Below, piece by piece: positions 20,979-30,866 of a DNA stretch of 32,000 nt. Source of the stretch: an uncultured archaeon (GTDB lineage Archaea; Asgardarchaeota; Thorarchaeia; Thorarchaeales; Thorarchaeaceae); assembly GCA_964648855.1 (NCBI GenBank), contig CAZYLT010000004.1, forward strand, positions 109,532-141,531, in the 5' to 3' direction. Below the pieces are notes generated by a model. The model worked only from the letters and a program-made list of their open reading frames with translations, had not been told where the DNA came from and did not search any database. A program made the translations under genes and the position numbers. Numbering within the stretch: the first letter of the stretch is position 1; every line of letters starts with the position of its first letter.

Positions 20979-21066
20979 GCCGAGGTAGCCAAGCCTGGAT
21001 TAAGGCGCTGGTCTTGAAAACCAGTGTCCGCTGGACTCATGAGTTCGAATCTCATCCTCGGCGCCA
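20979..21066 (+). tRNA. tRNA-Ser (anticodon UGA), intron-less, CCA encoded
   Basis: Acceptor GCCGAGG/CCTCGGC; anticodon arm CTGGT-CTTGAAA-ACCAG; long variable arm; T-arm ATGAG-TTCGAAT-CTCAT; G73 then CCA. Confidence 0.97.
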
Positions 21067-25000: not shown

Positions 25001-26227
25001 ATGACCCGATACCTTACGTTGACTCCCTTTGGAATTTTTTTACTGAATGAATCAGGAGAAGTATCTGAAAAAAAGTCATTCTACCCCGATGTTTCGCTTT
25101 CATCTACTGTACTATTCAATTTGAATGAGGGCAACATCGAAGAGATTCCTGCCCCAGTCAATCAATTCCTGACGGGCATTGCACCCGATTCGTTGATTGT
25201 TTCAAATCCGAACCTTGCTGCAGTCTTAAAATCAAACAGCATTGACTCGTTTACTATTGAGGAGGACTCTGATGTTCTGAGGATGTTTAGAAGCACTGAG
25301 GGCACCCATCTCTTGAGAGAAGAGATTGTAGGCTCAAAGGACGATATTGACCAATTCAGGCAGAAGGTTTCTCTTGAGGTGGCTCGAAGAACGATTAGCA
25401 AGGCCATTCAGCAGGAAGACCTCTTGGTCAAAAATGCTGTTGATGCAGTAAACGAGATTGACAAGTCGATTAATATGGTTGCAATGCGATTAAGAGAATG
25501 GTATACCCTTCATTTTCCGTCGCTGTCAGATCTCATCGAAGACCATGAAACGCTTGCCCGTATCATAACCTTGAGTGGAAATAAGACAGAAATCGATTCA
25601 GATCTCCTCGAAAAAGCAGGAGTCAGTGACGAATTAGCAGCTCGCGTTTTGGATTCGTCAGTCACGGACATTGGTGCTCCTTTCTCAAAGCGTGATGTTA
25701 CCGCCATCACATCACTGGCAGAGCTGATACTGACTATGCACTCCCAGCGAAAAGAACTGGAAGAGTACATTACAAATCTCATGCAATCCGTTGCTCCAAA
25801 CATGACTGCCCTAGCAGGGTCTATGGTCAGTGCTAGACTGATCAGTCTAGCTGGATCACTAAAAGATCTGGCACGAAAGCCATCCAGTACCATCCAAATC
25901 TACGGAGCTGAAAAGGCGCTCTTCCGGAGTATGAAGACCAAGGCTACCCCTCCGAAACATGGAGTCATCTTCCAAGTACCATTGATTCACTCTGCTCCAT
26001 ATTGGCAGAGAGGGAAGCTCTCCCGTGCGCTGGCGGGCAAGTTGACTATTGCTGCACGTGTGGATGCATACTCTGACCGCGACATAGGCGACGAATTACT
26101 TGAGGATTTGAATTCCCGAGTTGAAGAGATTAGGAAGCAGTATCCTGAACCTAGCGAAGGAAATGAGAAGAAAAGGGATGAAACCAGGCGAAAATCACCA
26201 AAATCCAAACAAAGAGGGAGAGGCTAA
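25001..26227 (+). CDS. nop5: Box C/D RNP core protein Nop5 (Nop56/58)
   Basis: RLREWY..HFP, APN, PSSTIQIYGAEKALF and PKHG motifs; basic tail. Confidence 0.95.
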   Translation: MTRYLTLTPFGIFLLNESGEVSEKKSFYPDVSLSSTVLFNLNEGNIEEIPAPVNQFLTGIAPDSLIVSNPNLAAVLKSNSIDSFTIEEDSDVLRMFRSTEGTHLLREEIVGSKDDIDQFRQKVSLEVARRTISKAIQQEDLLVKNAVDAVNEIDKSINMVAMRLREWYTLHFPSLSDLIEDHETLARIITLSGNKTEIDSDLLEKAGVSDELAARVLDSSVTDIGAPFSKRDVTAITSLAELILTMHSQRKELEEYITNLMQSVAPNMTALAGSMVSARLISLAGSLKDLARKPSSTIQIYGAEKALFRSMKTKATPPKHGVIFQVPLIHSAPYWQRGKLSRALAGKLTIAARVDAYSDRDIGDELLEDLNSRVEEIRKQYPEPSEGNEKKRDETRRKSPKSKQRGRG

Positions 26228-26230
26228 CAG

Positions 26231-26929
26231 ATGACTGATATTGAACAACACAAGTATCCAGGCGTTTACGTTGCCAAGAGCAAGGGGAGGGCCACTCTTT
26301 GTACACGCAGTCTAGTTGAGCATAAGCCAATTTATGGCGAGAAGATTTTGAAAGAAAATGACGGCGAGTATAGACTCTGGTCCAGACGAAGATCAAAGCT
26401 GGCAGCGGCTATAACAAAGGGGCTTCAAGAAATGCCTATCTTGCCCGGTTCTCGTGTTCTCTATCTGGGAGCAGCATCAGGAACTACGGTTAGCCATGTT
26501 TCTGACATCGTAGGCCACGAAGGTATAGTATATGCAGTCGAGTTTTCACCTCGTGTGGCTCGCAAGCTTGTTCAAATTGCATCGTTTAGACCCAATATTG
26601 TGCCTATCGTTGCAGATGCAAGACATCCTGCGAGATACTCACAATTAGTTGGCGGCCCCATCGATGTTGTCTATCAAGATGTTGCACAGACTCAGCAAGC
26701 CAGTATATTGGTTGACAACCTCAAGAAATTCGGTTCCTTTGGTTCATGGGGGCTTATTGCAATCAAGGCAAAAAGTATTGATTCCACTGCCCCACTGGAT
26801 GAAATCTATCAGAAGGAAATCTCGGTTATGACCGAACTCGGCTTGGAAGTAGTAGAGAACATTGACTTAGCCCCTCTCGAAAAGGATCACCGCTTCTTGG
26901 TGACCAGAGTGGCGGAGGTACGGAGTTGA
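26231..26929 (+). CDS. flpA: Fibrillarin rRNA/tRNA 2'-O-methyltransferase
   Basis: RSKLAA, VLYLGAASGTTVSHVSD, VEFSPR and YQDVAQ motifs. Confidence 0.97.
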   Translation: MTDIEQHKYPGVYVAKSKGRATLCTRSLVEHKPIYGEKILKENDGEYRLWSRRRSKLAAAITKGLQEMPILPGSRVLYLGAASGTTVSHVSDIVGHEGIVYAVEFSPRVARKLVQIASFRPNIVPIVADARHPARYSQLVGGPIDVVYQDVAQTQQASILVDNLKKFGSFGSWGLIAIKAKSIDSTAPLDEIYQKEISVMTELGLEVVENIDLAPLEKDHRFLVTRVAEVRS

Positions 26930-29315: not shown

Positions 29316-29543
29316 TGGTGGGGTGGAGGAGATATATTCCGTATCTAGGTAGTCTAGATAGGCTTGAACTCCTGACCGATACTCAAATTTGAGTAGATAC
29401 TCAAACTTTACGAGTGTCACCTAGACGACGGCCAGTTTTTGACCCCGCGTGTCAGGACTCGAAGAGAGCCCAGATCTGGAGCCCGTCGCCATCCCGTTCC
29501 AGGCGACTAGGGAAATCCTAGCAGCTGACTAGGCCACCACCCC
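29316..29543 (-). tRNA. tRNA-Trp (CCA) with four predicted introns, CCA end encoded
   Basis: Exons 29543-29527, 29496-29476, 29415-29410, 29378-29364 and 29333-29316 join to GGGGTGG TG GCCT AGTCCGGGA TGGC G ACGGG CTCCAGA CTCGT CGGTC AGGAG TTCAAAT CTCCT CCACCCC A CCA, a 77-nt cloverleaf. Junctions form BHB-type motifs. Confidence 0.85.
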
Positions 29544-30623: not shown

Positions 30624-30649
30624 ACATCAAATCGAATTTCTCATTCTTG

Positions 30650-30766
30650 ATGGCGGCCATAGCACATGGGTCTTACCTGATCCCATTCTGAACTCAGAAG
30701 TCAAGCCCATGAGCGTTGAGGGAGATGTGCGGTGCGCGAGCCCGTGACAGGCCCTCAAGCTGCCAC
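30650..30766 (+). rRNA. rrf: 5S rRNA (stand-alone)
   Basis: TGGCGGCCATAGC...CCTGATCCCATTCTGAACTCAGAAGTCAAGC...GCTGCCA; terminal helix TGGCGGC/GCTGCCA; followed by a T-tract. Ends are approximate. Confidence 0.93.
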
Positions 30767-30866
30767 TTTTTCCAGTTTTACCATTACTCCTCAATTTTGT
30801 TGCTCTCTCTGCAGGAACCCAATGTACTAACAGAAACGATTAAGTGATAACTTTCAGCAGTCCGCA

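Follow-up and report, generated by a model that had tools for sequence, protein, structure and literature searches.

The purpose of tRNA introns has long been debated, and the self-guide carried by the intron of tRNA-Trp is the textbook exception. In the Asgard archaeon described here, the tRNA-Trp gene is interrupted by four introns, and the one at position 37/38 lacks that self-guide. What, then, is this intron for? We addressed this question with a 32,000-nt stretch of DNA that contains the gene (the window) and with the tRNA-Trp genes of related genomes.

A tRNA-Trp gene with five exons and four introns

Removal of the four introns from the precursor leaves a 77-nt tRNA-Trp(CCA) (Table 1). 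The minus-strand elements listed in a preliminary description of this DNA all lie where it had placed them, and the sequence is matched by contigs from four DNA runs of one study. ARAGORN called tRNA-Trp on a trial joint in which the boundaries of introns 1 and 4 were one base off; the final junctions agree with relatives that lack each optional intron. Multi-intron tRNAs are common in Asgard archaea (PMC11291895). For comparison, we used a family set of 59 distinct long (57 to 62 nt) and 10 distinct short (31 to 34 nt) Trp introns.

The Nop5 and fibrillarin genes lie 2.4 kb from tRNA-Trp, a linkage that recurs across many family genomes, and the named homologues of the window's fibrillarin are mostly from Thorarchaeota. 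The 5S rRNA gene (window 30649-30768) and an intron-less tRNA-Ser(UGA) gene (20979-21066) are ordinary. The 3' half of intron 1 (29497-29526) can pair with nt 23 to 28 or with the end of intron 2; this pairing is not conserved and was treated as accidental.

Table 1. Features of the tRNA-Trp locus and of associated loci in the same genome (window positions unless a contig is named)
Feature	Position	Strand	Basis or remark
Gene for tRNA-Trp(CCA): four BHB/BHL introns between five exons; CCA end encoded	29316..29543	-	intron-less relatives
Exon 1 (nt 1-17)	29527..29543	-	
Intron 1 (17/17a, 30 nt), optional in the family	29497..29526	-	
Exon 2 (nt 17a-37); C34 = 29479	29476..29496	-	
nt 23-30, target of the intron-2 antisense tract	29483..29490	-	
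Predicted sRNA D-guide site: nt 30-37 plus intron ATCT; N+5 = C34; one mismatch, C35	29472..29483	-	
Intron 2 (37/38, 60 nt), long form of the family module	29416..29475	-	
Covarying hairpin P1 of 6 bp with a 5-nt loop; separates the two guide sites	29455..29471	-	
GGGGTCA handle, complementary to the sRNA D' guide; also in tRNA-Met and tRNA-Leu(UAA) introns	29440..29446	-	
CTGG; pairs with nt 34-37 in this genome; complete in 4/59	29432..29435	-	
Antisense tract CCGTCGTC, complementary to nt 30-23, with compensation at 26 and 28	29424..29431	-	
BHB2 central helix, 3' strand; 3/4 pairs here and in all long family introns folded	29418..29421	-	
Exon 3 (nt 38-43), common to anticodon stem and BHB3	29410..29415	-	
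Intron 3 (43/44, 31 nt); central-helix strand GAGT 29384-29381; 7/59 long-intron genes	29379..29409	-	
Exon 4 (nt 44-58)	29364..29378	-	
Intron 4 (58/59, 30 nt)	29334..29363	-	
Exon 5 (nt 59-76)	29316..29333	-	
Nop5 and fibrillarin genes, proteins required by the model	25001..26929	+	
tRNA-Met(CAU) and tRNA-Leu(UAA) with intron ATC...GGGGUCA module	G000:C4:24703-24836 and C4:19216-19334		
Box C/D sRNA, sR47-like	G000:C4:73619-73692 (L470:1220-1293)	+	outside the window, ~35.8 kb before its start

The intron has lost the Trp self-guide

The Trp introns of other Asgard families and of the named outgroups carry a D' guide, a D' box, a C' box, and a guide antisense to nt 31 to 38, although in the other Asgard families and TACK this self-guide was itself the search criterion. 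Published euryarchaeal Trp introns carry the same layout (PMC2584109 S4). The guide antisense to nt 31 to 38, which would address C34, occurs in none of the 59 family introns. A C-like heptamer anywhere in the intron was found in 6 of these 59, versus 78 of 99 outgroups, and is absent from the intron studied here. The preliminary description had likewise seen a CTGA and no clear C box in this intron, and both observations held: the CTGA (29455-29452) recurs in 27 of 59 introns, and there is no C box. The only part of the intron that resembles the old D' guide is GGGUCA, which may be a relic of that guide or a transfer from a Met or Leu intron. Its GGGU can pair with nt 38 to 41, and the spacing to a D'-like GA that a D' guide with N+5 on nt 39 would need fits in 2 of the 44 introns parsed, this genome's not among them.

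It had been suggested, as an alternative, that the antisense tract of intron 2 is the remnant of a C/D guide. The tract targets nt 23 to 30 rather than 31 to 38, and both the C34 guide and the C' box are gone, so that the suggestion fails for the tract. The broader link drawn at that time to box C/D methylation of C34 is probably right, by way of a separate sRNA. Circular permutation of the old guide was ruled out because the 3' GAAGA is also a BHB strand in the outgroups, and a stand-alone C34-guide-like match on contig C1 lies inside a 503-aa open reading frame and was judged a chance match.

Two side observations belong here. The Trp introns of TACK and other Asgard genomes (L235-L354, L078-L094, L363, L366) hold the D' guide, the C'/D' motif, and the C34 guide, the last of these always 6 nt away from the C' ATGA. 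In most of them the D box is degenerate and a clear C box is missing, which makes them single-kink self-guides. Methyltransferases of the SpoU and FtsJ families, one of each (L397, L398), are also encoded in the genome and are possible guide-independent sources of Cm32 or Nm34.

The intron shares a module with tRNA-Met and tRNA-Leu(UAA)

Two further 37/38 introns of this genome, in tRNA-Met(CAU) and tRNA-Leu(UAA), also start with ATC and contain GGGGUCA, the handle. This module is present in tRNA-Met of 75 and in tRNA-Leu(UAA) of 62 of 86 family genomes, and reversed controls gave 0. ATCT is invariant in all 69 distinct family Trp introns, but their retrieval required ATCT; ATC and GGGTCR were part of the search patterns, which makes the invariance counts partly circular. 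ATCT is fixed in the long Trp introns though it has no conserved BHB partner there. The fourth G of the Trp handle varies (45/59). Trp introns with the handle are without the self-guide.

The Leu introns are short hairpins resembling the short Trp form, and the Met introns are long, like Trp intron 2. The short Trp introns (L015, L018-L022, L026, L028, L077, L109) look much like Leu(UAA) introns and occur in more than one clade, which suggests that tRNA genes have exchanged introns. One tRNA-Met (L558, G295) lacks an intron at 37/38 and has its TTGGGTCAGA handle in an intron further 3', in the variable region, as if the tag had moved with or between introns. The one other tRNA-like handle match in the present genome is an intron of tRNA-Gly(GCC) (G000:C11:893-1000, minus strand), which contains GGGGTCAT, does not start with ATC, and was seen in this one genome only. 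No Trp handle was found among five genomes of family f9.

Of the two hairpins that had been drawn inside intron 2, GGGCTC/GAGTCC (P1) is real, with two-sided changes at five of its six pairs across the family; the TGAC arm of the second, TGAC/GTCA, occurs in just 2 of 59 introns, and that hairpin is a local accident. A nested intron within P1 was ruled out for want of a central helix, and H/ACA pocket geometry was ruled out since G rather than U stands at the unpaired target positions. A terminal K-turn of the short introns is possible in one genus and is not general.

A separate putative box C/D sRNA is complementary to the module

From the module, we predicted an sRNA with one arm antisense to the handle and another arm across the exon-intron junction, and such an sRNA was then found. 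It sits between tRNA-Gly(CCC) and cdc6 and is syntenic upstream of cdc6 in five of five genera. It has boxes C, D', C', and D, guides of ~12 nt, and a terminal stem; the D box is degenerate in many relatives, and Rfam gives only sub-threshold C/D-box matches. The sRNA is present in 79 of 86 family genomes and 66 of 135 genomes of family f9 (control, 0/400), and a looser pattern adds two further families, both with the handle in their Met introns. Asgard families with a self-guide still in their Trp intron gave no match to the sRNA pattern. Fibrillarin, Nop5, and L7Ae are all encoded in the genome. A search of the rRNA portions covered, namely the assembled 16S and 23S over its 3' part, gave no target for the D' arm.

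The D' arm, UGACCCC, is complementary to the intron's GGGGUCA. Among the 30 f9 genomes with both partners, the handle/D' pair at the GGGG/CCCC end is U-A in 28 and A-U in 1 (hand count); covariation between D' arm and handle was found for the Met motif across Asgard families and not for Trp. The D arm spans nt 30 to 37 and the intron's ATC, which puts nt 34 at N+5. The pair at N+5 is G-C34 in Trp, Met, and Leu(CAA) and G-U in Leu(UAA), where it should block methylation (PMC6009581). The D arm is invariant and is matched in full by Leu(CAA) alone, so that Leu(CAA) by itself explains the D arm; the Leu(CAA) intron has no handle. Trp has one mismatch (C35, next to the target), and Met has two. 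Against a published criterion of at least nine continuous Watson-Crick pairs (PMC6009581), Trp offers three plus five, with C35-U between them and flanking G-U, and a second arm of 7 bp within 30 nt. Together with Leu(CAA), the three tRNAs that carry the handle, Met, Leu(UAA), and Trp, are the four position-34 C/D targets in Pyrococcus (PMC7994747). The two guide sites are colinear with the two arms, at a spacing of 9 to 11 nt in short Trp introns and, across the hairpin, 24 to 26 nt in long ones. Judged from this complementarity, we think it quite likely that the sRNA docks on the Trp intron.

An antisense tract in intron 2 pairs with exon 2

The preliminary description had reported that intron 2 is antisense to exon 2 and had proposed covariation across relatives as a check. 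In this genome alone, the duplex does not exceed shuffles (p=0.25) and is unremarkable for its GC content; therefore, a comparative test was needed. The 8-bp tract pairs with nt 23 to 30 in all 59 long family introns, with compensatory changes at two positions, so that the reported pairing is borne out. The pair at position 28 is C-G in 55, U-A in 3, and U-G in 1 of the 59; the pair at position 26 is G-C in 51, A-U in 7, and G-U in 1; and position 31 is paired in just 6. In an alignment of 53 sequences, 96.7% of the cells of the tract helix are paired, versus 28 to 48% for the whole structure in slid registers. The mean antisense run is 8.4 in Trp versus 4.5 after shuffling and 4.3 against the Met exon, and the Met intron is more weakly antisense to its own exon (5.7 versus 4.2 shuffled). 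On a tree of Nop5 plus fibrillarin, which has low backbone support and is built from MAGs, U28 arose separately in two genera, with the wobble state in the sister genome of one. Taken together, the comparisons make it very probable that the pairing is under selection. DNA-level inverted-repeat conversion was ruled out as a source of the tract because G-U wobbles are kept. The additional 4-bp CTGG/CCAG helix that had been described is complete in only 4 of 59 introns and is a local accident.

The ten distinct short Trp introns keep the handle and have no tract; the tract is thus dispensable, a helper rather than a requirement. As a separate observation, one genome (G056; L355, L380) has a U25/A26 variant of tRNA-Trp, yet its same-contig Nop5 and fibrillarin genes group with a C25/G26 genome, pointing to recombination or a second origin.

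Opening of the guide sites and a model for intron 2

The tract helix and P1 abut the D-arm site, the helix stopping at nt 30, where that site starts, and P1 starting at its other end. In computed folds, which ignore tRNA tertiary structure, the price of opening both guide sites is 9.1 kcal/mol when the tract is native and 12.9 kcal/mol when it is shuffled, with the native tract cheaper in 37 of 38 relatives. With both sites open, nt 27 pairs with the 3' half of the intron at P>0.8 in 53 of 57 cases. For this genome, the gain is small (10.7 versus 12.3 +/- 2.4 kcal/mol), and a slipped register is preferred. Among the single-intron relatives, the tract fold beats the spliceable fold in 38 of 38 (median, 0.6 versus 5.75 kcal/mol above the minimum free energy [MFE]). 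The tract may thereby act as an opener of the anticodon arm.

We propose the following model. By sequence comparison, the Thorarchaeia Trp intron is without a C34 self-guide and has the ATC...GGGGUCA module of the Met/Leu(UAA) type. An sR47-like sRNA acting in trans would lay its D' arm on GGGGUCA and its D arm on nt 30 to 37 and the first intron bases, with C34 at N+5, as suggested by complementarity and, for Met, by covariation. Such docking would work solely on the unspliced precursor. By pairing with nt 23 to 30, the tract would remove the anticodon stem, free both guide sites, and block the canonical BHB. Fibrillarin, Nop5, and L7Ae would then make Cm34, the arm would refold, and the (alpha-beta)2 endonuclease would remove intron 2 last; intron 3, where present, would leave first, likely as a side effect. 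We give a probability of roughly 0.55 to this reading as a whole, in which intron 2 is a docking platform and a splicing hold for guided C34 methylation, including Cm34 on Trp itself. The wider proposal is more tentative and less likely to be right than wrong: that a single shared C/D sRNA serves as many as four tRNAs with different anticodons, methylating their wobble bases by means of an intron tag, that Trp swapped its self-guide for this tag, and that a strand-displacing tract gates splicing on modification.

The nearest competitor shares most of these steps. The sRNA would dock and the tract would open the arm, but C34 of Trp would stay unmodified; docking would serve folding or the timing of splicing, or excised introns would occupy the D' arm and so aid the RNP on Leu(CAA). 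The covariation of handle and D' arm is solid for Met, the D arm pairs imperfectly with Trp, Met, and Leu(UAA), and conserved guide pairings that do not methylate have been described (PMC6009581), all of which would fit. However, the handle occurs in the three known position-34 target tRNAs other than Leu(CAA), with one Gly intron as the sole further tRNA-like match in this genome, the ATCT of the long Trp introns is fixed in the absence of a conserved BHB partner, and the Trp self-guide is missing just where the handle occurs. We therefore consider docking without Trp methylation unlikely, and guided methylation remains the reading that we prefer.

Competing folds and the order of intron removal

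Nucleotides 39 to 41 in exon 3 are required by both the anticodon stem and the central helix of intron 3, and so the anticodon stem and BHB3 are mutually exclusive, as the preliminary description had argued. It had further inferred a switch in which intron 2 sequesters exon 2 so that intron 3 is cut first; in a wider form, the switch would place other noncanonical introns before the canonical one as well. When the full precursor was folded, BHB3 was within the MFE structure, whereas BHB2 cost +10.0 kcal/mol and the 8+4 fold drawn earlier cost +1.6 kcal/mol. BHB2 can form with intron 3 in place, at this energy cost, and the introns are not nested. The computed P(BHB3) is 0.91 to 0.94 with intron 2 and 0.17 after its removal; it falls to 0.43 to 0.47 when the tract is replaced by A12, and its median is 0.91 when the tract is shuffled. 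The genome has two subunit genes for the splicing endonuclease, the catalytic chain of which is closest to PDB 3p1z/3ajv, of the crenarchaeal type, and shares their N-terminal insert; endonucleases of this type cut noncanonical introns (PMC5829648). From the computed preference of 10 kcal/mol, which is the basis for an order here, intron 3 is probably removed before intron 2 in this genome, mainly because its BHB is more stable by about that amount, and the tract would help only incidentally.

The mutual exclusion, the folding probabilities with and without intron 2 or with A12, and documented canonical-last and nested orders (PMC3978253) all favor the switch. Nevertheless, 52 of the 59 tract-bearing genes have no intron 3, and 38 have no other intron at all; none of the 10 short Trp genes has intron 3, and its occurrence shows no association with the tract (Fisher p=0.58). 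The compensatory changes in the tract are found only in genomes without intron 3, and shuffling the tract leaves P(BHB3) high. Moreover, among 99 outgroup tRNA-Trp genes, which were chosen for carrying the C34 guide, about 45, mostly from Bathyarchaeia, are interrupted again at 43/44 or an adjacent position, and none of these two-intron genes has a tract of at least seven pairs. Because most tract genes lack intron 3, the compensation occurred elsewhere, and the outgroups manage without a tract, the tract is not a timer for intron 3. The pairing and the probable order thus survive from the earlier proposal, and the ordering purpose does not; we regard the switch as improbable.

Further alternatives

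A degenerate self-guide, in cis or in trans, would cast GGGU as the ancestral D' guide, directed at nt 39, and the tract as a second guide that was retargeted. GGGUCA followed by CUGA is indeed the D' guide and box in Trp introns of Thermoplasmata and Nitrososphaerota (PMC2584109 file S4), and two family introns keep the exact spacing. In the family at large, however, that spacing to GA ranges from 5 to 9 nt, the C34 guide and nearly all C'-like boxes are gone, no box stands at a fixed distance from the tract, and the motif, which covaries with the sRNA, is also found in the introns of Met and Leu; this leaves the explanation slightly less probable than the switch. Least probable is recursive splicing, in which GGGG and nt 32 to 35 would form an inner central helix and intron 2 would be removed stepwise, in two cuts, at GGGGUC|A. 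In its favor, GGGUC is paired with nt 30 to 34 in the RNAalifold consensus (P=0.86 in this precursor) and a crenarchaeal-type endonuclease is present, but there is no 3-nt bulge or flanking helix, the fourth G varies, pairing is near zero in the short introns, the first-step product is a dead-end hairpin, and the motif covaries with the sRNA.

Comparison with known systems

The closest known relative of intron 2 is the intronic C/D guide of pre-tRNA-Trp (Pyrococcus sR50 and Haloferax volcanii; PMC7994747, PMC2584109). The two are alike in a 60-nt intron at 37/38, in a GGGUCA similar to the D' guide, and in the predicted product, Cm34 on the unspliced precursor. Unlike the sR50 type, the intron described here has no C, C', or D box and no guide to nt 31 to 38; it would be the target and not the guide. 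The Trp guide has been described as always intronic (PMC2584109), and in this Asgard lineage, against that rule, the Trp intron appears to have turned from guide to target.

The sRNA resembles sR47 of Pyrococcus abyssi, which directs Cm34 of tRNA-Leu(CAA) (PMC3413156), in its D-arm target in Leu(CAA) with N+5 on C34. It differs from sR47 as described in that its D' arm does not vary and complements an intron motif of three other tRNAs; no role of an intron motif for the sR47 D' arm was described in the literature searched. The sR49 and sR-tMet guides of pre-tRNA-Met (PMC2584109 file S5) likewise work in trans, and their D arm crosses the exon-intron junction and therefore acts before splicing. 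In those guides, the D arm is specific to Met and the D' arm varies, whereas a shared D arm, an intron handle, and a cis-acting opener are combined here. In the literature searched, we found no description of an intron tag common to several tRNAs or of a trans-served Trp intron without a self-guide. Our results suggest that introns may be portable tags that extend one guide RNA to poorly matched tRNAs.

Ordered BHB removal is known from canonical-last splicing in Cyanidioschyzon and from nested archaeal introns (PMC3978253). Here, too, BHBs compete, and the less stable 37/38 motif is predicted to leave last. Unlike in nested introns, BHB2 can form with intron 3 in place, and the tract stands outside this ordering. 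Our results further suggest that splicing may be held until modification is complete. The components of the model are thus precedented in guided Nm34, in the junction-crossing guides of pre-tRNA-Met, and in ordered BHB splicing.
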